Assembly: GCA_045863855.1 (NCBI GenBank)
Contig: BTVV01000013.1
Location: 9,294-73,293 of the forward strand
Reading direction: 5' to 3'
Source of the DNA: Planctomycetota bacterium
Lineage (GTDB): Bacteria > Planctomycetota > SZUA-567 > H5-PLA8
Length of the DNA: 64,000 nucleotides
The notes under the pieces are model-generated. The model was not told the DNA's origin and did no database searches. It saw only the letters and a program-made list of their open reading frames with translations. Below are positions 1,643 to 47,979 of the stretch, piece by piece; position 1 is the stretch's first letter; every line of letters begins with the position of its first letter. A program made the position numbers and the translations under genes.

Positions 1643-3529
1643 TTACGCGCCAGGCAGAAGCGCCTCGTATCCGGGCAGGTCCGCACCGTTGAGGCAGCTT
1701 TCGATGATTTTGCGCCCCAGCGGATCCAGTTCCTTGCATTCCAGATAGGGCTTCAGTTCGCGTACGAAGAAGTCGTGCAGCATCTTCGCGCCGCGGTCGT
1801 AGGTTTCGACGCCGACCTCGGGCTGCGTTTCGACTTGCAGGAACCACTGCGCGATCTGCGTGCCTTCGATCACGATGGACTTCAGCGCGAAGCCCAGGAG
1901 CGGGCAGCGCGCGGCCTGGAGCTGATCGGGCCGGAAGCGCGCGCCGCCGCGCCGGGCGAGGTATTCGCGCACGATCCACTGCGGTGCGAAACCGACCTGC
2001 CAGACGCCAACATGCTGGTTGGGCGTAATGATGTAGCGCGTGCCGGGGGTCTTGCGGATCTGCGCCAGCAGTAAATTGGCCTGATCGACTTGGCGGCCGG
2101 TGCTGAACGGCCAATAGCTACCCACACCTTCGCTGCTGAGCGGCTTCGACTCGGTGATGCTGGGGTTCGCGTGCCCGCGAGGCGCCACGAGTCGCCAGAG
2201 CCACGCCAGCGACGGAGGCAGCAGGTGCAGGATGCCGAGGATTCCGTAGCTGGGCGCCAAACGCGAGCAGGGTGGGCAGCGTACGCCAAAGCTGCGCACG
2301 TCCACTTCGACCGGCTTGTCCACGACGCCCGGCACGATGCGCCGCGGCAGGATCACACGCGGATTGGGACACGGTTCGCCCGGCCGGTCTTCGGCGTGCT
2401 CCCAAATCAGACACGTCGCGCCGGGAACCGCGTGGAGGTTCAGGAATACGAGCGGCTCAGGAGGCTGGACGGTCAGACGCTCGAGGATCGGATCGGTGCC
2501 GTAATGGTCGACATGGTTGATGCGCACGAACCAGGCGTCTTCGGCGTCGGTGACGACGAGCTTGGTGCCCTTCTGGTGCAGGGGATGGCAGATGGCCATG
2601 TCGTCGGTGACGGGCCAGAGCGTACAGCCTTGCCCCAGCGCGAGCTTTCGGCGTTCGCCGCTGACGAGGTTCTCGCCGATCAGGAGCCGGCCGTCGTGCT
2701 CGCGGTGCGGGTACTCCAGCATCTCGCTTTTGCCGCCGCCGCTGGCGCCTTCGTGCAAGATCGTCACGATGTTGTCGTAGGGCGTGACCACTTGCACCGT
2801 GGACCCGTGCGCGGTGATCCAGCCCTCTTCTTCCCCGATGGCGAGCAGCACGCCGTAGATGCCCTTCTTGGCGCTGGGGCCGGGGTAGAGGTTCAACGAG
2901 TAGATTTCATGGAGGTCTGGCGAGCGATGGTGCACGACGATCTGCTGACCGTCGCAGTGCGAATGGCGGAAGGGCGGTGCGACGTAAATGACCGCGCGCG
3001 GTTCGTACTTTTCGGGCAGGTTTTCGGGCAGGATCATATTCTGCAAGTCGGCCAGGGCCGCGGCGAAGAAGGCGGCGTTGAGCGGGCAGACCAGAAGCGC
3101 GGCGTAACCAAAATCGTCGCCGCCGGCATAGAAAGGCTGGACGATCAGCGGCTGTCCGCGCAGCCAGTCCATGACCTCTTGCTTCATGCTTTCAAAGGTG
3201 CCCTTGAAGCGTTCATGAAAGCGCGGCTTATCGGATGCGAAACTCCCAGCGACCACCATGCTGTCCGGATCGCGGCGGCGCATGTACGGTTCGGGGTAAT
3301 TGACCGCAAGTCCGTTGCGGCAGCGTACGACTTCGGCTTCGACGACCGAACCGTGGGCAGGCGTTTCGTAACGCACCTCGAAGCGGTCCGAGCCATTCCC
3401 GCCCAGCGCCCATTCGATGAGTTCGGCCCGGTTTTTGGGGATGCGCACTTCAGGCGCGCCCTGCAAAACCTGCTCGAGTTCAGGAGGCAAAACCAAGTTG
3501 GGATGAAGCGCTGAGCTGCTGGCCGGCAT
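1643..3529 (-). CDS. DUF4914-like P-loop (Walker A GASGGGKSE) hypothetical protein
   Basis: About 628 aa from ATG 3529; an alternative TTG start lies at 3574. Carries a Walker-A-like motif HEGASGGGKSEM. The family assignment is from memory and tentative. Confidence 0.5.
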   Translation of the reverse strand: MPASSSALHPNLVLPPELEQVLQGAPEVRIPKNRAELIEWALGGNGSDRFEVRYETPAHGSVVEAEVVRCRNGLAVNYPEPYMRRRDPDSMVVAGSFASDKPRFHERFKGTFESMKQEVMDWLRGQPLIVQPFYAGGDDFGYAALLVCPLNAAFFAAALADLQNMILPENLPEKYEPRAVIYVAPPFRHSHCDGQQIVVHHRSPDLHEIYSLNLYPGPSAKKGIYGVLLAIGEEEGWITAHGSTVQVVTPYDNIVTILHEGASGGGKSEMLEYPHREHDGRLLIGENLVSGERRKLALGQGCTLWPVTDDMAICHPLHQKGTKLVVTDAEDAWFVRINHVDHYGTDPILERLTVQPPEPLVFLNLHAVPGATCLIWEHAEDRPGEPCPNPRVILPRRIVPGVVDKPVEVDVRSFGVRCPPCSRLAPSYGILGILHLLPPSLAWLWRLVAPRGHANPSITESKPLSSEGVGSYWPFSTGRQVDQANLLLAQIRKTPGTRYIITPNQHVGVWQVGFAPQWIVREYLARRGGARFRPDQLQAARCPLLGFALKSIVIEGTQIAQWFLQVETQPEVGVETYDRGAKMLHDFFVRELKPYLECKELDPLGRKIIESCLNGADLPGYEALLPGA

Positions 3530-3711
3530 GCGGTGACTCCCTGGATCTAGATTCCACGGCTTTGGCTGAGCCAAAACCCGCGCTACCCTACCATTCCGGC
3601 GAGCTAAATCAATTCAAGGTTGGACTGAGGATTTAAAGGCGAATGCACATTACGGCTTATGAATTTTCGGGCAAGATGCCCAATCATCACCAACCAAGAA
3701 GCTGTTGGCGC

Positions 3712-5722
3712 CTAGGGGGTATGGCGCCGAACGGCGGCGCGATGGACGATGACCTTGGTCTGATGGGTGCCCACGCCGATTTTGGAACGGTCGCCTAGCG
3801 AAAAGATTTCCATGGCCGGACGATGGTCTTGCGCATTCACGTGCCAGGTGCAAAGCAGCCGTTGATCCAAATAGCCGCGTACTTCGCTATTTCGAACCTC
3901 TACGCGAGCCACCATGCGGCGGCCTTGGGGAATGTCTTCTTGCCGGTAGATATAGGTAGGATTCTCGGTTCCCCAGAATAATTGATCGTCCCAGATGATG
4001 CCGATGGTTCGATAGTCGCGGCACCAAAGTGCGAAGCGAGCATGGTAGGGTCCTTTGCGGAAAATCAGACATACTTCGCCACGTCCGAAATCGGGACCGT
4101 CTTGCTGGTCCTGCGGCAAGACCGTGAATTCGACCTCGTAGTCGTATTCGGCGCCGGCTGGGTCGCCTAGCTTGATCCGCGCATTGGGGTGGCTGTCCGA
4201 ATACAACTCGTTGTTCCGCTTGCGCCACTGGCCTTCCACGCCATGCCCGCGAGGATCCACCGAAGGCAACAGGTTGCGCCAGTCCTGCGCAGTGGCTGGT
4301 GCGGTGGGCCGTGTCTCGGAAACGGCAGGCGCTCCGGTTTTGGCAGCCGGCGCCGCTGGAGCCTCGGTCTTCTCCGCCGGCGCTGCCTGTTTTGGCGCAT
4401 GGGGGTCCTGTACGCCGGGCGCCGAACGGGAGGGCCAAAGGGCCCAAAGCAGTAATAGGGCCAGAAGCGCTCCGGCCGCGCCGCCGGCCCAGAGCATCCA
4501 GGCCGGCCGGTGGTGCCGGGGCTCGGGCTTTCGTGGAGCGTTCCCCCGCGCGCGTGGCGCATAGGTATCCGATAATCCTGGCGGCGCGGACTGCATCCCG
4601 GCGGGATCGGATTTCGCTCGCGGCAGCGCCGAGGTCACCACCTTTTTCTCGGCCAGCGTCTCAGCGGCCAGCTTGGCGGGTGCTTCGCCACGCAGCACGC
4701 GGTCGATATCTTCGAGCAACTCGTCCGGATCCGCGTACCGGCTTTCGGGATCCTTCGCCATCATGCGCAGGATCACGTACTCGCAGCCGCGGCTGATCTT
4801 CGCGTGAACGCGCGTCGGCGGCGTCAATTCGTCGGTGGCGTGCTTTAGCACCACCTCGTAAGCAGTCTGGCCGTCGTAAGGCGTCTTGCCGGTCACCAGA
4901 TGGTAGAGCGTCGCACCGAGCGCGTAGATGTCGGCGCGAATGTCGATGTTCTTGGCGTTGCGGGCTTGCTCGGGCGCCAGGTAATGCGGGGTGCCCATGG
5001 CCATTCCGGTCTGGGTCAGGAAACTGGCCTCGGGATCGGCGCCTTTGACGAGCCCGAAGTCGCTGAGCTTGACCGTACCGGCTCGGTCGAACATCACGTT
5101 CGCTGGTTTCACGTCGCGGTGGACGAGCCCCAAGCGGTGCGCGCCCTGCAGCGCTTTGGCTACGTCACGCACGACTTCCAGGGCCTCGCGTTCCCCCATG
5201 CGCCCCGTCTTGCGCAGGCGGACCGAGAGGTCGCCGCCTTCGATCAGTTCCAGCGTGATGTAGTGGACGCCGCCGTCTTCGCCGTAATCCATGGTCCGGA
5301 CGACATGCGGATGGACAAGTTGCTGGCCCAGTTTGGCTTCGCGGTGAAAGCGCGCCAGCCGTTCGCGGTCCGAAACCAAGTCGGCGGGCAGCACCTTAAG
5401 CGCGACCCGAATGTTGGTGTCCTTGAGCCGGGCTTTGAGCACCGCGCCCATGCCGCCTTGGCCCAGTTTGCCTTCGATTTCGTAGGGGCCAATCTTGGCA
5501 GGGAGTTGCTCGGCGGCCAGCACCGCGGCTTTCATCAGTTGACCCACTTGTGCGGGGGTCAAGAGGCCCTGATCGACCAGCACCTGGCGCAACGCCGGGA
5601 TGGTTGCACCGCCGCGCAGCGCATCCTCTTGGAGCTTCCGGCAGCGTTCCAGATCCGCGGGTCGAACGAGGCCTTCTTCAAGCGCGCGCTGGCCGATTAT
5701 CGAGTCTTCGCTGGCCTTCATC
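3712..5722 (-). CDS. serine/threonine protein kinase with transmembrane segment and C-terminal extracytoplasmic jelly-roll (DUF1080-like) domain
   Basis: Hanks kinase motifs are present: GQGGMGAV..K, HRDVKPAN, DFG, APE. A Pro/Ala-rich linker and a TM helix (WMLWAGGAAGALLALLLLWALW) are followed by a ~190 aa domain. The ORF-track start at 6078 is an Arg-rich extension; the ATG at 5720-5722 (MKASEDS) is preferred. Confidence 0.85.
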
Positions 5723-5881
5723 GCCACCCGCTCCGCCCCGATCCGAGGCCGCATTCTACCGGTACGACTTCGAATTTCACCTGGGGTGCATGAGATTCGG
5801 ATTGGTCGTGGCGGTGAAGCAGCCCAGTGGGTATTTTCGGTCCCCTGTCGTTCACCTTTAGATCGATTGCCTGAGGATGAA

Positions 5882-8800
5882 ATGGCTCGAACACCTCGCC
5901 CCAAAAAGAAGGGGGCCGTAGCGCCCCTGCTGAACCACCCCGCCGAGATTTTTGCTTCCGCGCCTTTGCCCGGGCGGGGCATTCGACCGATTCGCCGGCT
6001 CATGGTGGCCAATCGCAGCGAGATCGCCATCCGTGTCTTCCGCGCGTGCACCGAACTGGGCATAGCGACCGTCGGCATTTACAGCCAGGAAGACAAGCTC
6101 GCGTTGCACCGCTACAAATGCGACGAAGCGTACCTGATCGGCGAAGGCAAGGGGCCGGTTGCGGCCTATTTGGGCATGGAGGAAATCATCCAGCTTGCCC
6201 GCGAAAAGCAAGTCGACGCCATACATCCCGGCTACGGGTTCCTGAGCGAGAACGCGGACTTCGCGGAGAAGGTGATCGCAGCGGGGCTGATCTGGGTGGG
6301 CCCCAGTCCGTCCGTAATGCGCAAAGTTTCGGACAAGGTGGCCGCACGCGAGCTGGCGCAGAAGCTGAAGCTGCCGGTAATTCCCGGCACCGACGGACCC
6401 GTGGGGAGCCTGAACGAAGCGCTGAAGTTCGCTCAATCGGCCGGTTTTCCGGTCATGGTCAAGGCCAGTCACGGCGGCGGCGGACGCGGGATCCGGCTGG
6501 CACGGAGTGCCGCGGAATTGAAGCAACTTCTGCCGCTGGCGCAGCGTGAAGCGAAGCAGGCTTTCGGCAGCGACGAGTGCTACATCGAGAAGGCGCTGGT
6601 CGGTCCGAAGCACCTGGAAGTGCAGATCCTGGGCGATACGCACGGGAACGTCGTTCACCTGTTCGAACGCGATTGTTCGGTGCAGCGCCGCCACCAGAAG
6701 GTGATCGAGATGGCGCCCAGCCTGGTGCTGGACGAGAATGCGCGCCGCGATTTGTGCGGTATGGCCGTGAAATTCGCTCGCGCCGCGGGCTACCAGAACG
6801 CCGGCACCGTCGAATTTCTGCGCGACCGCGACGGAAGCGTGTACCTGATCGAGATGAACGCGCGCATTCAGGTTGAGCACACGGTGACCGAGGAGGTCAC
6901 GGGGATCGATCTGGTGCAGGCGCAGATCCGCGTGGCGCAGGGCTACCGGTTGAGTGACCCGGAGACGCGCGTACCGCCGCAGGACCGGATCGAGCACACC
7001 GGGTACGCGATCCAGTGCCGCATCACGACGGAAGATCCGCGCAAAGGCTTTGCGCCCGACTACGGCCGCATCGGCACCTATCGGTCGGCGGCGGGCTTCG
7101 GGCTCCGGCTCGACGGGGGCACCGCATTCGCCGGGGCGATGATCACGCCCTATTACGATTCGCTGCTGGTGAAAGTGACCGCATACGGGCGCGACTTTGC
7201 CGCTGCCGCCGCGCGGATGTACCGCGGCCTGAGCGAGTTCCGCATCCGCGGCGTGAACACCAACATGCCGTTCCTGCAGAACGTGCTGCGCCACCGTGCG
7301 TTTCTCGAAGGGCGCTGCGACGTGCTCTTCATCGACGAGCACCCGGAACTGCTTCGCTTCCATGAGTCCCGCGACCGCGCGAACAAGCTGCTCGCGTTCC
7401 TCGCCGACATCACCGTGAACGGGAACCCGATCGTCGGTGAAGGGCAGAAAGCGCCGGCTGAGGCCAAGCCGCCCGTGCCGCCGCATCCACAACTGCCGCT
7501 CTCCACCGGGCGCTTATCGGGCGTCCCAGAGGGAACCCGGCAGATTCTGGACCGCGAGGGACCCGACGGGCTGGTGAAGTGGATTCTGCGCCAGAAAAAG
7601 CTGCTGGTCACCGACACGACCTTCCGCGATGCGCATCAGTCGCTGCTGGCGACCCGAATGCGCAGCCACGATCTGCTGCAGATTGCCCCGTATTACGCGG
7701 CGCATGCCGGCGACCTCTTCAGCCTCGAAATGTGGGGCGGGGCGACCTTCGATTCGGCGATGCGCTTCCTCAATGAAGATCCCTGGGAACGTCTGGTCGA
7801 ATTGCGCCGTAAGGTTCCGAACATCCTGTTCCAGATGCTCGTGCGCGGCAGTTCCGCGGTAGGCTACACGAACTATCCCGATAACGTGGTCAAGGCGTTC
7901 GTGAAAGAATCCGCGCAAGCCGGCGTCGATATCTTCCGCATCTTCGACAGCCTTAACTGGCTGCCGGGTATGGAAGTGGCGATCGAAGCCGCGCGCGACA
8001 GCGGGCGCATCTGCGAGGCGGCGATCTGCTACACGGGCGATCTGAACGATCCGAGCAGGTCGAAGTACGGCTTGAAATATTACGTGAGCCTCGCGAAGGA
8101 ACTGGTCAAGCGCGGCACGCAGATTCTCGGCATCAAGGACATGGCCGGCCTGTGCAAGCCTTACGCGGCGCACGCGCTGGTCAAGGCGCTGCGCAACGAA
8201 GTCGGCGTACCGATTCACTTTCACACGCACGACACTTGCGGCGGACAGGCGGCGACGCTGCTAAAGGCCGCCGAGGCCGGCGTGCATATTGCCGACATGG
8301 CCATCGCGAGCATGAGCGGCCTGACGAGCCAGCCGAATCTGAACAGCATGGTTGCCGTGCTCAAGGATTCTCCGCGCGCAACGGGACTCGATCCTTCGGC
8401 GCTCAATCGGATCTCCGAATACTTCGAGCAGGTACGGAAGTTCTATTACCCCTTCGAGAGCGGGATGCAGGCCGGTACCGCCGAGGTGTGGGATCACGAA
8501 ATGCCCGGGGGCCAGTACACGAACCTGCAGGTTCAGGCGAAATCGCTGGGACTCGAGAACCGCTGGGACGAGGTCAAGAAGCAATACCGCGCCGTGAACT
8601 TTCTGTTCGGCGACATTGTGAAAGTAACGCCCAGCAGCAAAATCGTCGGCGACATGGCGCTGTATCTGGTCTCGAACAAACTCACCGCGGAAGACGTCTG
8701 GACCAAGGGCAAGCACCTCAGCTTTCCGGAATCGGTGATCCAGTTTTTCGAAGGGCACATCGGGTTTCCGCCGGGCGGATTCGATAAGAAGCTCCAGCAG

Positions 8801-9442
8801 ATCATCCTGAAAGGCCGCAAGCCGTTGAAGAAGCGCGCCGGCGCGTACCTGAAGCCGGTCAAGCTGCAGGACCTGCGGGAGACTCTGGCGAAAAAGTTCG
8901 GCCCTGAAACCTCCCTGCGCGACGCGCTTTCCGCGGCGTTGTATCCCAAAGTGTACGACGTCTTCGCCGGGCACCGCAAGACGTATGGCGACGTGGCTCC
9001 GATTCCGACCAAGAATTTCCTCTTCGGCATGCAGGTGGACGAAGAGATCCTCGTCGAAATCGAACCGGGCAAGACGCTGATTGTGAAACTCGTTTCGATC
9101 GGCCCCCCTGCCGAGGACGGCACGCGCAAGGTCTATTTCGAACTGAACGGCGGGCCGCGCGACGTATCCGTGCGCGACCGCAGCGTTAAGGCGACGGTGG
9201 TCGAACGGCGCAAGGCCGATCCCGACAATCCGCACCATATGGGCGCGTCCATGCCCGGTGTCGTCGCCGAAGTGAAGGTAAAGAAGGGAAGCGAAGTCAA
9301 GAAGGGAGATGTGTTGATGGTGCTGGAAGCCATGAAGATGCAAGTCAACATCACCGCGCCGGACGACCGGGTGGTGGGGGAGGTCTGTATCGCCACCGGC
9401 GACACCGTAGATGCGGGCGATTTGCTGATAGCGTTCGAATAA
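5882..9442 (+). CDS. pyc: pyruvate carboxylase
   Basis: 1186 aa from ATG 5882. An N-terminal biotin carboxylase ATP-grasp domain is followed by a carboxyltransferase domain (HFHTHDT, HxH). The C-terminal biotinyl domain carries EAMKM. Confidence 0.9.
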   Translation: MARTPRPKKKGAVAPLLNHPAEIFASAPLPGRGIRPIRRLMVANRSEIAIRVFRACTELGIATVGIYSQEDKLALHRYKCDEAYLIGEGKGPVAAYLGMEEIIQLAREKQVDAIHPGYGFLSENADFAEKVIAAGLIWVGPSPSVMRKVSDKVAARELAQKLKLPVIPGTDGPVGSLNEALKFAQSAGFPVMVKASHGGGGRGIRLARSAAELKQLLPLAQREAKQAFGSDECYIEKALVGPKHLEVQILGDTHGNVVHLFERDCSVQRRHQKVIEMAPSLVLDENARRDLCGMAVKFARAAGYQNAGTVEFLRDRDGSVYLIEMNARIQVEHTVTEEVTGIDLVQAQIRVAQGYRLSDPETRVPPQDRIEHTGYAIQCRITTEDPRKGFAPDYGRIGTYRSAAGFGLRLDGGTAFAGAMITPYYDSLLVKVTAYGRDFAAAAARMYRGLSEFRIRGVNTNMPFLQNVLRHRAFLEGRCDVLFIDEHPELLRFHESRDRANKLLAFLADITVNGNPIVGEGQKAPAEAKPPVPPHPQLPLSTGRLSGVPEGTRQILDREGPDGLVKWILRQKKLLVTDTTFRDAHQSLLATRMRSHDLLQIAPYYAAHAGDLFSLEMWGGATFDSAMRFLNEDPWERLVELRRKVPNILFQMLVRGSSAVGYTNYPDNVVKAFVKESAQAGVDIFRIFDSLNWLPGMEVAIEAARDSGRICEAAICYTGDLNDPSRSKYGLKYYVSLAKELVKRGTQILGIKDMAGLCKPYAAHALVKALRNEVGVPIHFHTHDTCGGQAATLLKAAEAGVHIADMAIASMSGLTSQPNLNSMVAVLKDSPRATGLDPSALNRISEYFEQVRKFYYPFESGMQAGTAEVWDHEMPGGQYTNLQVQAKSLGLENRWDEVKKQYRAVNFLFGDIVKVTPSSKIVGDMALYLVSNKLTAEDVWTKGKHLSFPESVIQFFEGHIGFPPGGFDKKLQQIILKGRKPLKKRAGAYLKPVKLQDLRETLAKKFGPETSLRDALSAALYPKVYDVFAGHRKTYGDVAPIPTKNFLFGMQVDEEILVEIEPGKTLIVKLVSIGPPAEDGTRKVYFELNGGPRDVSVRDRSVKATVVERRKADPDNPHHMGASMPGVVAEVKVKKGSEVKKGDVLMVLEAMKMQVNITAPDDRVVGEVCIATGDTVDAGDLLIAFE

Positions 9443-9612: not shown

Positions 9613-11046
9613 ATGGTACGCAGAAGTCGGAATTGGATCCTGGCCGGTTTCTTGCTGACGTGTTCCATCGCGTTTCGCGCGCACGCGGGCGCGGCCGAAA
9701 CGCCGGCGCCAGTCTTTCAGCCGGTCCCTTTCTCCGCATTGCCGGATTTCTCGAAGGAAGTCGAAGAGCGCGCCACGAAGAAGGGATTGGTGCACAACCA
9801 CGGCTTGGTGGCCACGATCAACTACAAGGAATTCGAAAAACGCAAGCTGAGTATGCAGAAATGGAAGCTCCCGGTTTCGGCGACGGGCTTCAAGGAAGAT
9901 GTGAACGTACAGATCGCGCTGCAGCCGGGCCGGGCGCCGCTGGCGGTGGCCCTGCTGGGTTTTGCGATGAAACCCGACGGTAAGGTCGCGCAGGCTTGGG
10001 CGCACGACCTGCACAACGCCGGCTGCCACGTGCTCACCTTCGATTCGGTTTTTTGCCCCGAATTGAATTGCTGTGTTGGGCACGGCGTGGCGGGACATCT
10101 GCACGCGGAGGCCGAGATCGTTGCCAAGCTGGTCGATGCGGCGCTGATTCAGAAAATCGAAGTCGCGGAACGGTTGCGCGATCGGGTCAGCAGCATTCGG
10201 ATTCTGGGCGGCAGCTACGGCGGCGCGCTGGCGTTGAACGTGCTCAAGTTGCCGCGCGCCCAGGAGTGGCCGGTGGACCGCACGTTGCTGCTTTCGCCTC
10301 CCGTGCGCATGCGCACCGCCGCAAGCACCCTCGACCGTTATTTTCGTGACGACCTGCCGCTCTTTGGCCCGTCACTCATGAAGCTCCTCGACGGGTATAC
10401 GCCCGAGGGCGCTCGGCCCACGCCACGGGAAGAGTCCTTGATGCGGGCCGGAATTGCCTACGACTTCCTCGGCACGCTCACCGAGATCCTCAAGGATAAC
10501 GAGAAGCGTTATCTGCCGGGCACCTTGGCGCAGTTTGCGGAATCCGACTCGAACGCCAATGCCGAGCAGCGCCGCAAGATTGAAGAGGAGATTCTCAAAG
10601 GCCGACATAAGCGCCAAATCGAGGACCTGAAACTTCAGTTCCCCGGCTTCGACAACGACAAGGCGGTGAAGGATGCCTACGAGCAGGCGCGCAAGTACAT
10701 GGAAGACCGCCATAAAGCCGAAAAGGAATCCGTGCGCCGCACCTTGGCCAAACCCGACCACTGGGGCTTTCAAGACTACGTGAATTATCTCTGCGCCCCG
10801 GCTTGGAAAAAGGATGCCGAAGGTATCTGGATCTGTGGAGACTTAGACAAGCACCTCGGCGAAGCGCCACCCTTTGTCCAGGTGGTGATGGCGCAGGACG
10901 ATCCGTTAAACGATCCGGAAGAACTGGCTAACCTGCGTAAGCTGGTTGCCGAGCCCGCGCTGCTGGTGCTGCCTCACGGCGGGCATTTGGGCTACTGCGG
11001 CACGAAGTGGTTCCAGGAACTGATCAAGAAAACCTTCCAGCCGTAA
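9613..11046 (+). CDS. secreted alpha/beta-hydrolase-like protein
   Basis: GAGGAG ribosome-binding site 7 nt before the ATG. Signal peptide (LLTCSIAFRAHAGAA). GxSxG-like ILGGSYGG nucleophile elbow. No precise family. Confidence 0.5.
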   Translation: MVRRSRNWILAGFLLTCSIAFRAHAGAAETPAPVFQPVPFSALPDFSKEVEERATKKGLVHNHGLVATINYKEFEKRKLSMQKWKLPVSATGFKEDVNVQIALQPGRAPLAVALLGFAMKPDGKVAQAWAHDLHNAGCHVLTFDSVFCPELNCCVGHGVAGHLHAEAEIVAKLVDAALIQKIEVAERLRDRVSSIRILGGSYGGALALNVLKLPRAQEWPVDRTLLLSPPVRMRTAASTLDRYFRDDLPLFGPSLMKLLDGYTPEGARPTPREESLMRAGIAYDFLGTLTEILKDNEKRYLPGTLAQFAESDSNANAEQRRKIEEEILKGRHKRQIEDLKLQFPGFDNDKAVKDAYEQARKYMEDRHKAEKESVRRTLAKPDHWGFQDYVNYLCAPAWKKDAEGIWICGDLDKHLGEAPPFVQVVMAQDDPLNDPEELANLRKLVAEPALLVLPHGGHLGYCGTKWFQELIKKTFQP

Positions 11047-11065: not shown

Positions 11066-12958
11066 CTACTCACCAAATGGGTTGGGCGCTTTGTACGACG
11101 CATCCAAAGCCATCAGAATTTCCGTGCTGCGGCGATGCCGGTCGCAAAGCGCGCGGAACGCATCGCGGTCCAGTAATTCATCCACATAAAGTTCGGCGCT
11201 AACCGGAGTTGGGATGCGTGCGTAGCGGCCCTCCCACTGCACGTCCACTTGATCCGTGACATCTTTGCCCGCACGGTCGTAGACCGCGAATCGCGGTTGG
11301 TCCTTGAAGTACACGGCCAGCGTCTGCGCTTCCCAGCCCAGGAAAACCCACACCTTTGTCTTTTTGCGCTGCGTATCGAAGAACACGGGAACCATCATGC
11401 GAGCATCGCACGCGAGGTCGGGATCGTCGGCGCGGGCCGCCCAAGTCTCGAATCGGCCGATCGCGGACTCGAGGGCCGGGGCGTCGAACATCCGATCCAG
11501 ATCCGCTTGCGGGAGTCGCCCCAAGACCTGTGGAAGCGCGAAATCGGCCGCGCGTGGCGCGGGAAGGCCCAACTGCCGTAGCGCCAATCCCGCCGCGCCA
11601 AGATGCAGGTCCATCACTTCCTGCAGTTCGGCAGCCACATCCATCTCGACGGGTCCGGCTGCCGTTAGCCTATGCATCGAACGAAGCGCGTCGTCTCCGA
11701 AGGCTTCTCTGAGTGTACTTCGAACGGCCGCATACCCCAGCACTCGCCGCAAATAGTGCGTAGGCAGCGGCTCGATATCCAGCCGCGGCCGGATGGTGAC
11801 CTTGGGCCGGTCGTTCGGCTCGGGCATGCCGCAGCCCGCCGCGGGAATTTCAAGCTGCTTGATCTGCGTCTCGCGCGCCAGCGCCATGAGGCTCTTGAAT
11901 AGCTTCTCAAGATGCTTCGCGTAACGCGGCGAAGCCTCCGCGCGTTGGTGCTCCGGCAGTCGAGCGTAGGCGACCAGCGGTTCCAGGGACCACGCCACCC
12001 AGTCGTACCAGCCGCCATCCGGCTGCAGCGCCAATTTCCCGTTGCGAACGCGGGCGATCAGTTCGTCGATGAGGCTGAAGCCGTCCGGTATCGGGCGGTT
12101 CCCGTAGAGCTTTTTGACTAAATCCGTCTCATACGCGCGGGACGGCGGCAAGAACCGGTACATCGGAGATTCGGGTGCGAAGCGTCCCGCATCGAGTTGC
12201 CGCAGTAGTCCGCGCAAGTCGGGCGCGTCGGCCGAGAACGGATTGACCAGCCACTCCACCATGCTCAGGTAGCGTTCGTAAGTCGCCCGCACTTCGGGTT
12301 TGGCGTGCAGCGCCCGTGCGAGCGCCTCGACGCCGGCGATCTCCTTCAGGTCGCTCTGCAGCATGCGATCCTGGCGGAAGATCCCGCGCAGTTCGTCGGA
12401 CCACGTATAAAAGGAAATGGGCTTGGAACGAAGTTCGTCGCCGAGGAACTCTTCTTTAACCTGCTCGGAGCGTTCGCGAAGAGGCAGAGGGAGGTCCAGT
12501 CGCTGTCCGCCTAATTGCGCTGCGGCGGCCAGCGTGGCGGTTGTGGGCCCGGCGATTGTATTCAGATCGGAGACGAGTTCGCGCAAGACCCGCGCTTTGC
12601 CCGAAAACGTTCCGCAGCTGCCTTGTGCGGCAAGTTCGACGGCCGCCACTAAGCCGTCGTCGAACTGCTTCGCTTTTTGCGCCAGTTCTGCAGCCGAAAC
12701 GAACCGCTCGGCGCATTCGGACGCTTGAAGCGCTGCCGGGGCTGGGAAAAGCGCGCTAGAACCATATTCAGGCGGCAGGTCGATGCGGAGAGTCTGGGTA
12801 GTGGGATCGATCTGAGCGCGATAGTCATCGGCCTCGGTGCTGCCGCCCGCAGGCAGGCCTGCGCCCGGCGCGAGGGCAGGCGAAGCGCCGAACCAGCCTT
12901 TTATGCGATCCGCCCAAGAAGCCACGCGCCGTTCTCCAGGTAGCTTGGATGGAAGCAT
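11066..12958 (-). CDS. DUF3160-like hypothetical protein
   Basis: 630 aa from ATG 12956-12958 (MLPSKLP). The ORF-track start at 13324 would overlap the cytochrome gene and is an Arg-rich artefact. The FYTWSDEL... region recalls DUF3160; this is tentative. It lies 38 bp downstream of the multiheme cytochrome on the same strand. Confidence 0.45.
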   Translation of the reverse strand: MLPSKLPGERRVASWADRIKGWFGASPALAPGAGLPAGGSTEADDYRAQIDPTTQTLRIDLPPEYGSSALFPAPAALQASECAERFVSAAELAQKAKQFDDGLVAAVELAAQGSCGTFSGKARVLRELVSDLNTIAGPTTATLAAAAQLGGQRLDLPLPLRERSEQVKEEFLGDELRSKPISFYTWSDELRGIFRQDRMLQSDLKEIAGVEALARALHAKPEVRATYERYLSMVEWLVNPFSADAPDLRGLLRQLDAGRFAPESPMYRFLPPSRAYETDLVKKLYGNRPIPDGFSLIDELIARVRNGKLALQPDGGWYDWVAWSLEPLVAYARLPEHQRAEASPRYAKHLEKLFKSLMALARETQIKQLEIPAAGCGMPEPNDRPKVTIRPRLDIEPLPTHYLRRVLGYAAVRSTLREAFGDDALRSMHRLTAAGPVEMDVAAELQEVMDLHLGAAGLALRQLGLPAPRAADFALPQVLGRLPQADLDRMFDAPALESAIGRFETWAARADDPDLACDARMMVPVFFDTQRKKTKVWVFLGWEAQTLAVYFKDQPRFAVYDRAGKDVTDQVDVQWEGRYARIPTPVSAELYVDELLDRDAFRALCDRHRRSTEILMALDASYKAPNPFGE

Positions 12959-12996
12959 GCTACCAGCGGGGCAGTCCGATGGAAGACGGGTGGCCG

Positions 12997-14640
12997 CTAC
13001 TTTTTCTCCGCGCCGCCTTGGCCGTAGCGCTCCTGCATGGCTTTGCGAATCGCCTCCGTCTGGCCTTCGGCGCCCTCTTTGAACCACTTGTGCTCGGGTC
13101 GCGCCAGCAAGGAGTCGATCACTTCGTTGACGGCTTTGGCTTGATCCGCCTTCCCGTGTTCGGCGGCGTGCTTGGTGATCTCGCGCGCCTGCGGAATCAG
13201 GTGGATGTAAAAGCGTTCGGCTACTTCGAACATGCCGTGCCAGTGTGTGTAGTCCGGCGCCATCATAGAGGCGCCGTGACGCGCTCGCCGGCCTTCGTGA
13301 TGCCACAAGTAAAACCAGGTCCACTCGATCTCTTCGTCGAAGTCCGTCTTTGTACGCAAGCCTTGCTTGAGCAGTTCATTCATGATCTGCATGCCGGGCT
13401 TGGCGAACTTCTCGTTGTAGAGCACGACCAAGTCATCGTACTGCTTATAGAAACCGTTGATGTAATCCGAGGTATGGCAGTGGCTGCAGCCGTTCTTCAT
13501 GCGCTGGCGCTTCTGGTCGGCCGTATCGGCGATGAGTTTCTTGCGCTCCTCTGGATCCGTCGATGTCACGATCTGGTGGTTGGCGTCGGTATCCATGCGC
13601 AAGCTGATGGGCGGACGATTGGTCCACGAAATGCGCTCGCCCGGATCGTGCGTGGCCGGCTCGCGCGTATTGGCGGACATGTGGCACGTCGCGCACGTCG
13701 GCGCGGCGTTGTAGTCTTTGCCCAGAACCCAGGAATCCGCGTCGAGGTTCATTTGCTCGCGCAGGTCGCGGTAGGCCACGCCGTGTTTGGACTCCTCGTA
13801 GATCTCTTTTTGAGGGTGATCCGGCCCCAGGTGGCACTTGCCGCAATTCTCGGGCTGCCTGGCGCGCCGCGGCGAGAAATCGTGACGGCTGTGGCATGCG
13901 CTGCACGAACCGCGGCTGCCGTCCACATTGAGCCGTCCGATACCCGTATTGGGCCAAGTGGAGGCATGGAAAAGCGGTTTGCCGTCATCGTTCTTAACGA
14001 TCTTCGCCATGGCTTCGTGGTTGGTCGGCTTACCGTCGGGTCCGGGTTTCAGATCGTCGACATTGATCATCCCGCCATCGGAACTTTGAAACGCCACTTT
14101 GCTGCCGTGGCACTGCTGGCATCCGCTGAAGGCGCTCGCCATGCCGTTTACCGAAGTCACGTCGAACCCCGGCGTGGGCCCGTGCGGATTAAAGGTCGCG
14201 CGGTGGCCTTCGACGGTCTCGGCGAGGAAGTTATCGAGCGACGCAAGAATATTCCCGCCCTTGGAATGATGACTATGCGCGAATTCCAGCGCTTCCTTCT
14301 GATGGCATTTACCGCAGTCGCGCGGCGTGACAACCGTGGCAAGCGTCTGGCCGAAATGCGCGAACGCGTCGGCATCGCCGGATTCCGCCTGGTGGCATTC
14401 CACGCAGCCGACACCTTTGCGTGCATGGGTGCTGCCTTCCCAGTGAGCCACGATGCCCGGCTGGGCTTGCTTATGGCAATCGACGCAGGTTTGTGACGAG
14501 GCCGGAATCGCGATGTGCGGCTTAGCCAGCCCCGCTTCCTCTTGCTTGCGCACGACTTCCATCCATTGAACGAAGATCAGCGAAACCAGGAACAGAATGC
14601 CCAGGATCCCGATGATCGAGCGCTTGGTGGTCAGTTGCAT
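12997..14640 (-). CDS. membrane-anchored multiheme c-type cytochrome (8 CxxCH motifs)
   Basis: N-terminal TM helix. Heme motifs: CVDCH, CVECH, CGKCH, CQQCH, CSACH, CGKCH, CATCH, CSHCH. Lies directly downstream of cytochrome b. Confidence 0.85.
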   Translation of the reverse strand: MQLTTKRSIIGILGILFLVSLIFVQWMEVVRKQEEAGLAKPHIAIPASSQTCVDCHKQAQPGIVAHWEGSTHARKGVGCVECHQAESGDADAFAHFGQTLATVVTPRDCGKCHQKEALEFAHSHHSKGGNILASLDNFLAETVEGHRATFNPHGPTPGFDVTSVNGMASAFSGCQQCHGSKVAFQSSDGGMINVDDLKPGPDGKPTNHEAMAKIVKNDDGKPLFHASTWPNTGIGRLNVDGSRGSCSACHSRHDFSPRRARQPENCGKCHLGPDHPQKEIYEESKHGVAYRDLREQMNLDADSWVLGKDYNAAPTCATCHMSANTREPATHDPGERISWTNRPPISLRMDTDANHQIVTSTDPEERKKLIADTADQKRQRMKNGCSHCHTSDYINGFYKQYDDLVVLYNEKFAKPGMQIMNELLKQGLRTKTDFDEEIEWTWFYLWHHEGRRARHGASMMAPDYTHWHGMFEVAERFYIHLIPQAREITKHAAEHGKADQAKAVNEVIDSLLARPEHKWFKEGAEGQTEAIRKAMQERYGQGGAEKK

Positions 14641-14658: not shown

Positions 14659-15708
14659 TTAGTGCGCAACGGCGCCTTCCCATACGGTTAGCCCCACGAT
14701 GGCCAGCACGGCCACGACACCTACCCACACGCTGAATTCCGACTTCGGCCAGAAACGCCGAATCCAACCGTCCAGCAGCGGCCACATGAACATCGTGAAG
14801 AGGATAAAGCCCATGCTCAGCACCGCGGCGGTGCCCGGGAAAAGTTTCAGCCAGCGGAACGTAACGTAGAAAAACCATTCAGGTTTGATCACTTCGGGCG
14901 TGATGAGCGGATCGGCTTTAGGTCCCAGCTCGGCAGGAAAAACCGTAGCCAGAACGCTCAGCACAATCATCAGCACTAAGCCGATCATCAGCTCGGTATA
15001 CAGATGGTCGGGAAAGAAATTGAAATGCTTGGGCTCGTTCGGCTTCTCGTCCTCAAATTGGAACTCCGTCACGCCCTGCAGGCGGAGCAAGGTGATATGT
15101 ACGCCCAAGAGTCCGACGATCGCCACCGGTAGAGCCGCGGCATGCAGGATGAAGAAGCGTGGCAGGGTCTGCTGATTGTAAACCTCCCCGGCCAACAGGA
15201 GGCGTTTCATCAACGGACCGATCAGCGGGACCGTTTCGTTGATGTTCGCGCCGACGGTCGCGCCCCAGTAGCTGAGTTGTTCGTAGACGAGGCTGTAGCC
15301 GGTGAATCCCGTCATCAAGGTGCAGACGAGCAGGCACATGCCCACCATCCAGTTTAATTCGCGTGGCTTGCGGTAAGCGCCGGTGAAAAAGACGCGCATC
15401 TGATGCAGGATCACCGCCGCGATCATCAGCGTCGCGGCCCATTTGTGAATGCTTCGGATATACCAGCCAAAGGCAACCTCGTGCGTGATATGGCGAACGG
15501 ACTCATAGGCCCGGTCGGGCGACGATTCGTAATACAAGGCCAGCAGGATACCGGTGACGATCTGGACCACGAAGAGGTAAGCGGGTGTTCCGCCCAAGCA
15601 AAACCACCAGCGCCTCAAGTGATTCGGCACCGGCTCGTTGGTCATTTCACGGAGCTGTTCGCCGCGGATTGGGATACGCTCTTTGAACCAAGCGTTTATG
15701 CCGAACAT
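14659..15708 (-). CDS. cytochrome b (bc-complex subunit, b6-type with C-terminal extension)
   Basis: Polytopic. Conserved heme-ligand histidines sit in helices (HITHEVAFGWYIRSIHKW..., ...LHQMRVFFTG). Typical PEWY-like region (PEWFFY). Confidence 0.85.
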   Translation of the reverse strand: MFGINAWFKERIPIRGEQLREMTNEPVPNHLRRWWFCLGGTPAYLFVVQIVTGILLALYYESSPDRAYESVRHITHEVAFGWYIRSIHKWAATLMIAAVILHQMRVFFTGAYRKPRELNWMVGMCLLVCTLMTGFTGYSLVYEQLSYWGATVGANINETVPLIGPLMKRLLLAGEVYNQQTLPRFFILHAAALPVAIVGLLGVHITLLRLQGVTEFQFEDEKPNEPKHFNFFPDHLYTELMIGLVLMIVLSVLATVFPAELGPKADPLITPEVIKPEWFFYVTFRWLKLFPGTAAVLSMGFILFTMFMWPLLDGWIRRFWPKSEFSVWVGVVAVLAIVGLTVWEGAVAH

Positions 15709-15709
15709 G

Positions 15710-16282
15710 TCAGGATAACTCCTGGGGGCCGGCCACTTCGCTTGCCGACAGGCCTTCTAGTTCCACTTCGATGAATAGCAGTCCGTTCTCTATAAGGAGC
15801 GGATAGCGCCCCAATGACTGTCCTTTGGGCGGGCCTTCGGTACCCAGTCCGGACGGGTTGAAGACGCCATTGTGGCAGGGACAATAGAAGCGGTCGTTTT
15901 GAGCTTACCAGTGAACCTTGCAGCCCAGATGAGGACAGACGCTGGAAAGCGCGATGAAATCCTCGACGGAGCCCTGCGCCTGCTGGCGGGCGATCGTCAC
16001 GCCGGCGCCGGTTGGCGTGCGGAATTCCTTGGCGCTGCCCATCGGAAAATCTTGTACGGTGGATACGAACATCCATCCTTTTGCGGTAGCACCTGACGGA
16101 TAAAGGTAACGGGCAGCGAACGACGCGAAGGTTCCATAGCCGGCGACCAATCCGCCAGCCATGGCTAAGGCCGAAAGCTTGGCCAGAAAGTCTCGGCGCT
16201 CTGGTGCTTCAGGCTCTGCGTTCGAGTGAGAGGTCGTATTCACGTGATGGGCTATGCTCCAGCTCATGGCATCGGAAGGCAT
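15710..16282 (-). pseudogene. Rieske [2Fe-2S] protein interrupted by in-frame TAA (15905-15907) between cluster-binding boxes
   Basis: The N-terminal part has a Tat signal (RRDFLAKL) and box I CPHLGC, then TAA. The same frame continues AQNDRFYCPCHNGVF (box II) to TGA 15710-15712, 1 nt from the cytochrome b ATG. Spacing between the boxes matches intact Rieske proteins. Confidence 0.7.
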
Positions 16283-16507
16283 TCTTGCTAAGAGGACCTA
16301 TATGTCTACTATAAAAGTCGGATTTTCACCATGCCGCTCATATTTGGACACCAGAGGGTCGATTTTGTGGTGCCTTCGTTCGAATGCCGCAGCATCGGGA
16401 ACGTGTGCATACGAGTGAATCTGGAGCACATTTCGTTCAGGTTCGACTTCAATGCACTCGAACTCATAAAGGGGGGGCTATTCTCACGCCCAAATTCAGT
16501 CAATCGA
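16283..16507 (-). promoter_or_regulatory. AT-richer intergenic region upstream of the Rieske/cyt b/cyt c operon (putative promoter) and downstream of photolyase
   Basis: Marked local GC drop. The only ORFs here are short and low-complexity. It is positioned 5' of the first gene of the bc operon. Confidence 0.3.
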
Positions 16508-43798: not shown

Positions 43799-44476
43799 AT
43801 GTCTTCCGCCACAGGTATTCTCGGCCGCAAGGTCGGCATGACTCAGGTTTTCAACGAAGCGGGCTTGCGCGTGGGCGTGACGGTCCTGGAAGTCGGCCCG
43901 TGCAAGGTCTTGCAGGTCAAGGACGTCGAGAACGACGGCTACTTTGCGCTGCAGTTGGGCTTCGGCGAGAAGAAGGAAAAGAACACGTCGAAGCCGTTGC
44001 AGGGGCATTTCGCGAAGGCCGGCGCAAAGCCGGCTCCGTACGTCGGCGAGATTCGTCTCGCGGCGGCGGCCGAAGACAAGCAGGGCGAAGAGGTTACGGT
44101 TTCGATTTTCGAAGGCGTGCAGAAGGTGGACGTGACGGGCACGAGCAAGGGCAAGGGCTTCGCCGGCACGATCAAGCGTTACAACTTCCAGCGGCAGCGT
44201 GCGACGCACGGTAACAGCAAGAACCACCGGACGTTAGGTTCGCTGGGCCGGCACATGTCGATCAACAAGGGCGTGCCGAAGGGCAAGAAGATGCCCGGGC
44301 ACATGGGTAACGCGAAGGTGACGGTGCAAGGCTTGAAGGTCGTTAAGATCGATCCGGACAACCACTTACTGCTGATCGAAGGCGCGGTTCCCGGCCCGAA
44401 CGGGGGCTTCGTCGTGGTGAACAAGTCGATCCAAGAGAAGGTGCGGAAGGACAAGGAAAAGCGCCCGAAGTACTAA
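43799..44476 (+). CDS. rplC: 50S ribosomal protein L3
   Basis: AAGGAG ribosome-binding site. MSSATGILGRKVGMTQVF ... is the universal L3 signature. No rpsJ upstream or rplD downstream in this window. Confidence 0.9.
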   Translation: MSSATGILGRKVGMTQVFNEAGLRVGVTVLEVGPCKVLQVKDVENDGYFALQLGFGEKKEKNTSKPLQGHFAKAGAKPAPYVGEIRLAAAAEDKQGEEVTVSIFEGVQKVDVTGTSKGKGFAGTIKRYNFQRQRATHGNSKNHRTLGSLGRHMSINKGVPKGKKMPGHMGNAKVTVQGLKVVKIDPDNHLLLIEGAVPGPNGGFVVVNKSIQEKVRKDKEKRPKY

Positions 44477-44506
44477 GCCAGGAATTTCCGAAGATTCTGC
44501 TCGAAC

Positions 44507-44537
44507 GGGCCGGAAGAAATTCCGGCCCGTTTTTTTA
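44507..44537 (+). terminator. rho-independent terminator of rplC
   Basis: GGGCCGGAAGAAATTCCGGCCC hairpin followed by TTTTTTT. Confidence 0.7.
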
Positions 44538-44633
44538 TGCTTAAACCGCACGAGTGCTGCTCGAAGTGAGTTACGCAAAGTGTATGGCCGAGGAAGCTAT
44601 ACGAGGCGCTATATTTGCGCCACGTCGTGCGCT

Positions 44634-44703
44634 AAGTGTAAAAGTGTAAAGCGTAAGTGTAAAGTGTAAGGCTAACTTTACACTTAGGTTTACACTTTTT
44701 TTT
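44634..44703 (+). repeat. tandem/inverted AGTGTAAA octamer repeats forming long imperfect hairpin followed by T9
   Basis: Four direct copies of (A)GTGTAAAG are followed by two inverted copies TTTACACT and then TTTTTTTTT. It forms a very AT-rich patch in GC-rich DNA. Confidence 0.55.
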
Positions 44704-44784
44704 GACGCGGTTCGAGCGTGACAAAAGGCGCGAACCGGGTCGAATGGGTTCGAAAAAAGGCGCGTCCTTCCGTGACCTTCCGCG

Positions 44785-45372
44785 TCAGGGGTGCGGGGGA
44801 GGGGGTTGGGGCGCGTCGGCTCGAATGACGACCCAACGGGCGATGCGCGGGCAGCACAGAAAGACCAGCAGCAGGAGGAAGAGCTGGCCATACGGCGTAA
44901 AAAGGAAGAGCCAGAGCGGGTACCACCAGAAGACCGCATGCGCATCCACGCCTATATCCAAGTAATCGACGCCACCGCGTCGATTCAGGTACTGCCATTT
45001 CAGGTTCAACAGCATGACCCACGAGCCTCCGAAGGCGGCGGGGATTAAAACGCAAAGCGTAATAAGACGCCGGCTTGAGTCCGCCGTTCGATTACGCGCC
45101 AATAAGCGCAGGCCGATCAGCCACCAGATCGCGAGCAGCGTCCAAATAATCAGCAGTCCGATGAATAGCGGAGTATGGGCGTTCCGATCGATCAGTGGCC
45201 AAGCAAATAACCATGCGGCCGCGAACATTTCGACGGTCAATCCGTAGAATTCGGTGACGCGAAACTGGACCTTGGCCTGAGGGGCCACAGGCTTTAGCCA
45301 CATCGGCGCGAGCACGGCCGCCCCACAGACATGCGCGAGGGCCAAGGTCCACAAGAAGTCAAGGATGGGCAT
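44785..45372 (-). CDS. integral membrane protein, unknown function
   Basis: Five to six TM helices. ATG 45372 (MPILDFLW) is preferred over the longer track ORF. Confidence 0.5.
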   Translation of the reverse strand: MPILDFLWTLALAHVCGAAVLAPMWLKPVAPQAKVQFRVTEFYGLTVEMFAAAWLFAWPLIDRNAHTPLFIGLLIIWTLLAIWWLIGLRLLARNRTADSSRRLITLCVLIPAAFGGSWVMLLNLKWQYLNRRGGVDYLDIGVDAHAVFWWYPLWLFLFTPYGQLFLLLLVFLCCPRIARWVVIRADAPQPPPPHP

Positions 45373-45484
45373 TCCGGAGCTCCGCGAACTTCGCCGGTGC
45401 GGTCTTGTGAAGGCCGTGCAAACCCATAATATAGCGGTAGGTACATGCAGGGGAAATCCCACTACGGGGCGGCCGATTGAGCAT

Positions 45485-46246
45485 ATGGATGGAATCGTGG
45501 CGCAAAGCGATAGGCTTGGTTTCCGTCTGCTTCGAACTTTCGCATTTAGCGAATGTACGGCCTTGGTTTTTCCTGCCTTAGCATTTTCGGTTTTGGTTCT
45601 CTGTTCCTGTTCTAGTCCTAGTCAGAGGGAGCGAGAAAAATCCGCACCGAAGGACCCCCAAGCGAAGCCCATTACAGATCAGGTAGAGGATGGGGGTGAA
45701 TCTTCATTTTCAGGTGAGATCATTACGCCTGACTTGATGCAGTCGGTTCCTCCGGAAAAGCGGCATCCATTTCTTATGCCTGGCGAAGTGTATAGCGTGC
45801 CGCGCGTATTAAGCACCCCCAGCGGCTCGGTTTTAGAATTAGCCGAAAAAGGAATTAAGATCGTTAAGGGCCATTGGGAGATTAAAGGGGACTTTATTCG
45901 AGGCTCGCCCTTAGAAGGACAACCGCAGGCCATTTTGGAGTTCGATGTCGAAGATGCCTACTATGTCGGGATTTGGGCGAGAGGCGAGGCGGCGGGAGTG
46001 GGCTATTCTGTGGGCAAAAATACTATCTACGGCATTCGTCCGAACAGTACCTTAAAGTCTGTGGGACTCTATTTCCCTATTAATCGAAGTCCCGAACTCT
46101 GGTTGGACGAGAAGCGCCATCAATCCGAGTTGCCCGACTCGGATACTGTCCTTTCAGAAATTAAAGAGGGCAAGTGTTGGTTGATCGTAGAGCAGGGCAC
46201 AATCGAGTTTATGAATTTTAGCATCTATATGCGTTCGAATAATTAG
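45485..46246 (+). CDS. lipoprotein, unknown function
   Basis: Signal peptide with lipobox LVLC-S. Low-GC codon usage. No known domain. Confidence 0.5.
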   Translation: MDGIVAQSDRLGFRLLRTFAFSECTALVFPALAFSVLVLCSCSSPSQREREKSAPKDPQAKPITDQVEDGGESSFSGEIITPDLMQSVPPEKRHPFLMPGEVYSVPRVLSTPSGSVLELAEKGIKIVKGHWEIKGDFIRGSPLEGQPQAILEFDVEDAYYVGIWARGEAAGVGYSVGKNTIYGIRPNSTLKSVGLYFPINRSPELWLDEKRHQSELPDSDTVLSEIKEGKCWLIVEQGTIEFMNFSIYMRSNN

Positions 46247-46281
46247 TAGCATTGGGGTCGGGTGTGGTAGTTGGACTTGGA

Positions 46282-47088
46282 ATGGATCCATCTATGGGGA
46301 AGCACGTCAACTCGCTGCAGGAAGCAGCGAAATATTCGAATGCGCTATTTTACTTGGATTGCGAGAACGAAATACCGGTTACAAGCCCAGTACGCTTGGT
46401 TCGATGTACGGATGATGCGTTGCAGCGGTTGAGCGATGATTTGGGTTTTTACGGACTTCTTACGGATGCCACTCAGTGCGTCTTTTTTGATATTACACCA
46501 AGCGATCCACCTTGGACGAAAGCGCAGCTTAGCGGGGATATCTGGGTTGCTCCTAAATACGAGGCACTTCTGGGCGCTGCGATTCGGCAGGTGCTTATCG
46601 GCAAGGCCGAAGACCTATACAATAGTGCCTTTGACCCAACGAAACCCCTTTACCCCCTTGAGTCGCGCAAAGTCGGTGCTACGCCCATGTCCCTCGCAGC
46701 GGAATCAAACGATTGGGATGGAACGTTTGTTCGAATGCTCCGACTGAACCCCAACATCAATGCCTGTAACTCGAATGGTGATACTCCACTTCATGGCGCC
46801 GCGAGAGGCGGCCACGCCGCTTTCGTTGAGCGATTAATCGCATTACGAGCTATGGTCAATGCCAAAGGCGCGCATGAAAGAACGCCTCTCCACCTTGCCA
46901 TCCTGAATCAGATGAACAAATATCCTCCGTCCACAGACGCCGCAAAGCTTTTGATTCTGAACCATGCCGATGTGAATGCAAAGGATGAGAAAGGCTTAAC
47001 TCCTTTGGACTACCTATTGCGGTGGTGTCCCAACGATCTTGAGTTGAAGGAAATGCTTCTGTCGAGAGGCGCAGTAAGAGGAGGCTAG
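46282..47088 (+). CDS. ankyrin-repeat protein with unknown N-terminal domain
   Basis: Two to three C-terminal ANK repeats (GDTPLHGAARGGHAAFVERLI..., ERTPLHLAI..., KGLTPLDYLL). An alternative TTG start lies at 46252. Confidence 0.65.
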   Translation: MDPSMGKHVNSLQEAAKYSNALFYLDCENEIPVTSPVRLVRCTDDALQRLSDDLGFYGLLTDATQCVFFDITPSDPPWTKAQLSGDIWVAPKYEALLGAAIRQVLIGKAEDLYNSAFDPTKPLYPLESRKVGATPMSLAAESNDWDGTFVRMLRLNPNINACNSNGDTPLHGAARGGHAAFVERLIALRAMVNAKGAHERTPLHLAILNQMNKYPPSTDAAKLLILNHADVNAKDEKGLTPLDYLLRWCPNDLELKEMLLSRGAVRGG

Positions 47089-47190
47089 TAGGCCGGTGGC
47101 ACGGGCAGTCCCTCCCACCGATCTTGAACGCGTCGCCCTTTCTGGATTTGGTGCCACGGGATGCGGACGTTCGCAACCCGTGCACACCAC
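47089..47190. repeat. REP-like imperfect palindromes (GGTGGCACGGG / GGTGCCACGGG ... CCCGTGCACACC)
   Basis: Two related GC-rich palindromic units lie between the ankyrin gene and the transposase. A third related unit (CGTGCCACCAGCC) overlaps the transposase stop at ~47905-47918. Confidence 0.3.
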
Positions 47191-47238
47191 CGTACGTCTC
47201 TCGATGAACGTCACGGACTCCTATAGACTGCGCGGCGC

Positions 47239-47901
47239 ATGGACGGTCGGCCCCCGCATCGCAAGCGCGTCCGCACGTACAACGTGCCGGGGCACGCGCA
47301 ATTTCTCACCTTCTCCTGTTACCGGCGCATGCCTCTATTAAGTAACGACACATGGCGTGGTTGGTTGGGCGAAGGCGTCGCGCGCGCATGCGCTTCATTC
47401 GACTTCGCGCTGTGGGCGTATGACTTCATACCGGAGCACGTTCACCTCCTGGTGAAGCCGCGCGGGAGCGTCTACGACGTGAGCGCCTTTCGCCGGAGTC
47501 TCAAGCAGGGCGTTTCCAAACGCATCGTGAACGCGCTTAAAGAGAAGAACGCGCCGGTGCTCGCGAAACTCCGCGTCCAAGAGCGTCCGAGGAAATGGTG
47601 CTACCGCTTCTGGCAGGAAGGGCCGGGGCACGACAAGAACATCTGGAGCCTGGCCAAGGTGATCGAGAAGGCGGTATACTGCCATCGGAATCCGGTGGAT
47701 CGCAAACTCGTGCGTTCGCCGGAACAGTGGCGTTGGTCGAGTTTTCGCTGGCTGGAGTTGGGTAACAAGGAACAAGAATCGCTGGCGGTGGACGCTTGGG
47801 ACGAGCGGCTCCGCGACGATCCGGACGGTGAGGCACTGGCTGCTTACACCCGCAGCCAGTGGCACCAGTTCCTAAAGGGTACGCGGAAAGATGAGGCGTG
47901 A
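47239..47901 (+). mobile_element. IS200/IS605-like Y1 (HUH) tyrosine transposase, REP-associated (RAYT-like) type
   Basis: HUH motif EHVHLLV. Catalytic Tyr context AVYCHRNPV. C-terminal W.WSS motif (WRWSSFRW). 220 aa. Confidence 0.7.
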
Positions 47902-47979
47902 CCGTGCCACCAGCCATGCGCATGAAGGTGCGCTTAAGTACGAAGAGCAAATTCTCCTGATACTAAAGGGGCAATAGCG

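Follow-up and report, generated by a model that had tools for sequence, protein, structure and literature searches.

Rieske subunits of the bc1 and b6f type carry the Pfam Rieske domain (PF00355), in which a box I of the form CxHxGC and a box II of the form CxCH are separated by a spacer of 12 residues. An RR motif near the N-terminus is followed by a hydrophobic anchor, and the gene lies directly upstream of the cytochrome b gene, to which it is coupled. In the Planctomycetota type, the Rieske gene is encoded beside cytochrome b and a multihaem cytochrome c. From what is established for Rieske proteins, the 2Fe-2S cluster takes its first pair of ligands, a Cys and a His, from box I (here CPHLGC), and its second pair, again Cys and His, from box II (here CPCH). 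The reading frame described here has these elements. It differs from the known subunits by a stop codon between the two boxes, and is otherwise identical to its best database match, P0001.

In programmed readthrough and recoding, an in-frame stop is also followed by conserved coding sequence. Examples are selenocysteine at UGA, pyrrolysine at UAG, and leaky stops in phage coat-extension genes. This is the sole likeness between those systems and the Rieske stop. Orthologues do not share the latter, no recoding RNA element accompanies it, it is TAA rather than TGA or TAG, and the same strain has a sense codon in its place elsewhere. With nonsense-mutation pseudogenes and single-base consensus errors of metagenome-assembled genomes, the locus shares a one-step substitution, the lack of further lesions, and restriction to one assembly. 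We found no difference from such cases, among which the Rieske stop is an ordinary one. An initial annotation, made from the letters alone, considered that an assembly error, an inactivating nonsense mutation and programmed readthrough would each be notable. However, metagenome-assembled genomes routinely show one-base differences that are private to one assembly.

We analyzed a window of 64,000 nucleotides, which is the whole stretch of DNA considered here, from a metagenome-assembled genome of a Planctomycetota bacterium. The features of the operon are listed in Table 1. Translation of the minus strand over 15700-16300 gave ...SSVCPHLGCKVHW, a stop, and then AQNDRFYCPCHNGVF...ELS with a terminal stop; the open frame from 16300 down to 15700 reads ...FIALSSVCPHLGCKVHW, a stop, and AQNDRFYCPCHNGVFNPSG...GPQELS with its terminal stop. 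The Rieske frame extends from a first ATG at 16282 to a TGA at 15710-15712. When the internal stop is read through, the product has 190 aa from this ATG, or 185 or 177 aa from the starts chosen by gene callers in relatives. PF00355 spans the stop (residues 70-154 of the read-through product, E = 8e-9). Both boxes and the Pfam domain are therefore found in one reading frame, in which the window sequence has a TAA separating box I from box II, and the same-strain allele P0001 carries both boxes in a single chain.

These results bear out most of what had been read from the letters. The initial annotation placed an in-frame TAA between the two cluster-binding boxes, and translation confirmed it at + 15905-15907. 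It also placed the Rieske TGA 1 nt from the cytochrome b ATG, and one base indeed lies between the TGA and the ATG at 15708. The proposed length of about 190 aa without the stop agrees with the frame from the first ATG, and the spacing described as canonical corresponds to a spacer of 12 residues in 125/125 homologues. The description of the sequence was thus correct, with the minus strand left unmentioned.

The start codon of the Rieske gene can be read in more than one way: two ATGs of the window, at 16282 and 16267, are absent from relatives at 89-92% identity. The relatives have no upstream ATG, and their N-termini read VNTPSHSN... or MNTTSHSN.... The start used in relatives is probably the equivalent of GTG 16243 (VNTTSHSN), which gives the 177-aa form. 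An internal ATG (MFVSTV..., 120 aa) is chosen by gene callers in relatives, and likewise in the NCBI record (55 aa). The RRDFL motif ahead of the hydrophobic anchor is kept in relatives and may represent a putative Tat signal.

No second Rieske copy was detected within the window by a six-frame regex, and the earlier statement that this is the only copy here holds at that scope. The closest species-representative genome is 'Planctomycetota bacterium H5_PLA8', with 92% protein identity, and it contributes one Rieske locus among the best 80 loci listed. Among named proteins, the nearest relatives come from Planctomycetota genome bins, where they carry the annotation 'ubiquinol-/menaquinol-cytochrome c reductase iron-sulfur subunit' or 'QcrA'.

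The operon has the order Rieske, cytochrome b, multihaem cytochrome c and a 619-aa protein. The cytochrome b gene has a GGAG 10 nt upstream of its ATG and ends in TAA. Eight CxxCH motifs were counted by eye in the multihaem cytochrome c, and its Pfam family, PF13447, is that of octahaem hydroxylamine-oxidoreductase-like proteins. The longer ORF of the 619-aa gene gave no Pfam match. The gene order with the multihaem cytochrome c and the 619-aa protein is kept in three relatives (L003, L005 and L008), and genes for photolyase and methionyl-tRNA synthetase lie upstream of the operon. An ATG-initiated ORF of 515 aa at 12949-14496 (+) runs opposite the multihaem cytochrome gene and is almost certainly not a true gene but the shadow ORF of a G+C-rich one.

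Table 1. Features of the Rieske/cytochrome b operon, with positions counted on the forward strand of the window.
Feature	Position	Strand	Basis
Rieske [2Fe-2S] subunit gene, Rieske/cytochrome b operon	15710..16282	-	Translation; PF00355; near-identity to P0001
RRDFL, twin-arginine-like motif before hydrophobic anchor (AKLSALAMAGGLVAGYG)	16184..16198	-	Read from translation
Box I, CPHLGC	15920..15937	-	Regex; six-frame translation
In-frame TAA in place of conserved Glu codon GAA	15905..15907	-	Same-strain contigs and homologues
Box II, CPCH, 3' of the stop	15872..15883	-	Translation; six-frame regex
Cytochrome b, 349 aa, fused b6-like N-terminal and C-terminal domains	14659..15708	-	PF00033, PF13631, PF00032
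Multihaem cytochrome c, 547 aa, third operon gene	12997..14640	-	PF13447, E = 9.5e-22
Conserved 619-aa gene, downstream of multihaem cytochrome gene	11066..12925	-	Called as 619 aa in L003 and L005

We compared the window with contigs of the same strain assembled from other read sets. P0001 equals the window product over all 185 residues save for a Glu at the stop position. It is encoded by two contigs, L001 (4,659 bp, SRR24144931) and L002 (1,357 bp, DRR491769), both of which differ from the window at + 15907 alone. At this base the window has A and all the others have C, which corresponds to T versus G on the coding strand. When all three contigs of each read set were taken together, 13,418 of 13,419 compared bases matched for SRR24144931 (L001, L006, L089), and 14,030 of 14,031 matched for DRR491768/9 (L002, L007, L088). 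The single mismatch was 15907 in both cases, with 0 indels. The stop is the sole difference between this assembly and these two other same-strain assemblies.

The DRR491768/9 runs may be the read sets of the genome bin itself, because the DRR runs and the GMV protein accession of the deposited product (see below) are both DDBJ identifiers. If this is the case, an independent assembly of the same reads would give G at the variable base.

In a third read set, SRR22452305 (L005), 5,510 bases were compared, and 3 clustered synonymous mismatches and 0 indels were found. The differences are located at 10548, 10551 and 10557 (+), at third positions inside a 477-aa gene (9613-11046). All three fall within 10 bp, and none were found across the remaining 5.5 kb of the contig. 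This cluster resembles a multi-nucleotide variant or a small inter-strain recombination patch.

Further searches for the strain and for the truncated allele returned nothing. A 54-nt site with N at the variable base had no match in the genome contigs or metagenome contigs that were scanned exactly, and the strain is absent from those collections. For the truncated product, three starts were considered (125, 120 and 112 aa), and no contig encoding any of them was found among the assemblies on record. The sequence look-up with P0122, the deposited product, found no contig, and a protein search with the N-terminal fragment found no additional same-strain fragments.

Of 125 homologous proteins, 116 have Glu at the conserved stop position, and the others have Gln (8) or Ala (1). 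The initial annotation aligned the TAA with a conserved polar position of b6f-type proteins; in the present family the aligned residue is Glu and not the Asn or Asp of the b6f proteins. The initial annotation had also suggested comparing the codon in relatives. Across genomic and metagenomic loci, the codon was GAA in 38/84 and GAG in 28/84, and the rest were other sense codons, so that a stop at the Glu codon was found in 0/84 loci; the same-strain contigs have GAA. We also scanned JGI metagenome contigs with a degenerate pattern (box I, VHW, one of TAA/TAG/TGA/TGG, seven codons, CPCH), and no match was obtained.

Selection on the gene was estimated against relatives with 87-92% DNA identity. 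The dN/dS values were 0.005-0.05 and equally low on both sides of the stop, with 0.01-0.05 in the part downstream of it. Against L003, for instance, the sequence after the stop has 19 synonymous differences and 1 non-synonymous difference. Because the ratios are equal before and after the stop, there is no decay behind it. The gene also does not behave as a decaying pseudogene in that there is a single substitution and the post-stop sequence is identical to the intact allele. As far as these ratios indicate, selection has kept the full-length Rieske gene up to the present, and the lesion, if real, is very young.

The change is private to this assembly, affects a single base, derives from an ancestral GAA, and has no recoding signals. 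We give an even chance to the explanation that the TAA arose as an error of consensus calling or polishing, or that the assembler followed a minority variant. Under this explanation, the TAA would have no function and would not be a designed feature. On the coding strand, one G has become a T (C to A at + 15907), which converts the conserved Glu codon GAA into a stop in a Rieske gene that is ordinary, intact and strongly constrained in all other respects, and the change exists only in this deposited metagenome-assembled genome. The Rieske protein of the organism would then be normal, with a length of about 177-185 aa, and may work with the adjacent cytochrome b and the multihaem cytochrome c.

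We infer an artefact or minor variant rather than a dominant allele because the independent same-strain assemblies carry G and no other assembly encodes the truncated product. In addition, the sole change in about 27 kb would otherwise be the knockout of a constrained respiratory gene. However, two observations argue against an artefact. Across the roughly 27 kb compared with the two read sets, no further mismatch and no indel occurs, so the assembly looks otherwise very accurate and a random consensus error is unlikely in advance. Moreover, genuine strain-level SNPs exist in the population, as is seen from the 3 synonymous differences in 5.5 kb against SRR22452305.

The same observations could be caused by a genuine nonsense allele, dominant in the population sampled, in which GAA changed to TAA very recently, and we consider the probability of this to be a little short of even. 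The stop is present in the public record (P0122 / GMV79850.1), the assembly is free of errors elsewhere wherever it can be compared, and real SNPs separate strains of this population. Population genetics leads us to expect nonsense changes among young mutations that selection has yet to remove, at a few percent of very recent mutations. However, purifying selection has remained strong until now both before and after the stop. Two other read sets whose DNA is otherwise identical carry GAA, the truncated product occurs in no other assembly, and the lone difference in about 27 kb would need to be a respiratory-gene knockout.

If the mutation is real, it would leave an N-terminal fragment of about 108-125 aa with the RR motif, the membrane anchor and the box I ligands only. 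Box II lies downstream of the TAA and is therefore missing from the truncated product. With the Cys and His of box II lost, such a fragment should not be able to hold a 2Fe-2S cluster, as follows from established Rieske biochemistry. Quinol would probably not be oxidized at the Qo site, and the Rieske/cytochrome b complex would have no function. With translation ending 192 nt short of the cytochrome b start, the two genes would no longer be translationally coupled, but cytochrome b would still have its own GGAG 10 nt upstream of the ATG. For quinol oxidation, the organism would need a different route, or else it would have to depend on fermentation in the reactor.

Programmed readthrough of the TAA into a full-length Rieske protein was another of the explanations proposed initially. 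The frame after the stop is open and fully conserved. Gln occurs at the stop position in 8/125 homologues, so near-cognate insertion would probably be tolerated, and an unrelated product, P0162, also ends at ...CPHLGCQVHW. However, the stop is not conserved: the same strain has GAA, and a sense codon is found in 84/84 loci and 125/125 proteins. A sense codon in the same strain from other samples means that the stop cannot be a conserved programmed signal. The JGI pattern scan gave no stop at the Glu site, and the 116 nt of RNA from the stop onwards fold no better than shuffled sequences (z = +0.75). The stop has the context TAA-G, which terminates translation efficiently in well-studied bacteria. 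TAA also ends 6/14 called genes of the strain. We found no tRNA genes and no Rfam matches in the window, and a suppressor tRNA within the window was rejected for lack of any tRNA gene there. Taking all of this into account, programmed readthrough is extremely improbable. Of the three explanations offered by the initial annotation, it is the one that was refuted, and the assembly error and the real nonsense mutation both survive.

The least credible explanations, to which we attach practically no probability, are a split Rieske protein, with each box on a polypeptide translated separately, and a genome-wide reassignment of TAA. The stop itself supports them, and nothing further does. No in-frame start exists between the stop and box II; the first is a TTG 31 codons downstream, past box II, so a re-initiated or split box II polypeptide is not possible. 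The homologues are all single-chain proteins with the 12-residue spacer. The alternative of two separate proteins, which had been named as a possible refutation, does not hold for these reasons. As for reassignment, cytochrome b, pyc and other genes end at TAA codons and have the same lengths as in relatives. This confirms the earlier remarks that TAA is a normal stop elsewhere, with pyc ending in TAA, and that genome-wide recoding is unlikely, since cytochrome b and pyc are among the 6/14 called genes with this terminator. We rejected programmed readthrough, a split protein and genome-wide recoding on the basis of a private one-base stop with no recoding signals and no restart.

P0162 needs separate consideration. 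It is a 112-aa Rieske product of an unrelated organism, 54% identical, and it was found in Logan and ENA on two contigs, the longest of 4,289 bp. Its end falls at the same codon as the window TAA. The gene may run off the end of its contig there, or the same Glu codon may have mutated independently to a stop for a second time. The empty JGI scan argues against a recurrent stop between the boxes. It is very improbable that the TAA is a true dominant allele in the reactor population and that, together with a stop at the same Glu codon in P0162 (planctomycete-like), it represents a recurrent and tolerated change. If this were true, the stop might be tolerated through low-level readthrough, with Gln, Lys or Tyr inserted and enough Rieske protein produced, or else the Rieske/cytochrome b/multihaem complex might be dispensable under anoxic reactor conditions.

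In the public record, NCBI holds the product as GMV79850.1 (P0122), a 55-aa 'hypothetical protein AMXMBFR7_10340 [Planctomycetota bacterium]' ending in ...CPHLGCKVHW. It belongs to the 90% cluster of the Rieske protein, and is the sole record found that ends at ...KVHW. Because GMV79850.1 ends at the stop, the TAA is present in a deposited public genome bin, very probably the one from which the window comes. For curation, GMV79850.1 is better regarded as a fragment of a Rieske subunit gene with one suspect base than as a hypothetical protein. The case illustrates that cross-checking against independent same-strain assemblies can settle such calls without an exotic explanation. Its biological weight is small; at most, one bioreactor planctomycete strain would have just lost one Rieske/cytochrome b complex.

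Two other regions of the window were noted. A 643-aa protein at 1643-3574 (-) has a full-length DUF4914 match (E = 1.6e-297), and its gene adjoins those of a Ser/Thr protein kinase (3712-6078, -) and pyruvate carboxylase (about 5990-9442, +). The G+C content of 44001-48000 is 0.55-0.56 versus about 0.62-0.69 in the flanking sequence, and the GC skew is positive from about 42 kb onward. This low-G+C stretch could be a horizontally acquired segment or could reflect a change in gene orientation.
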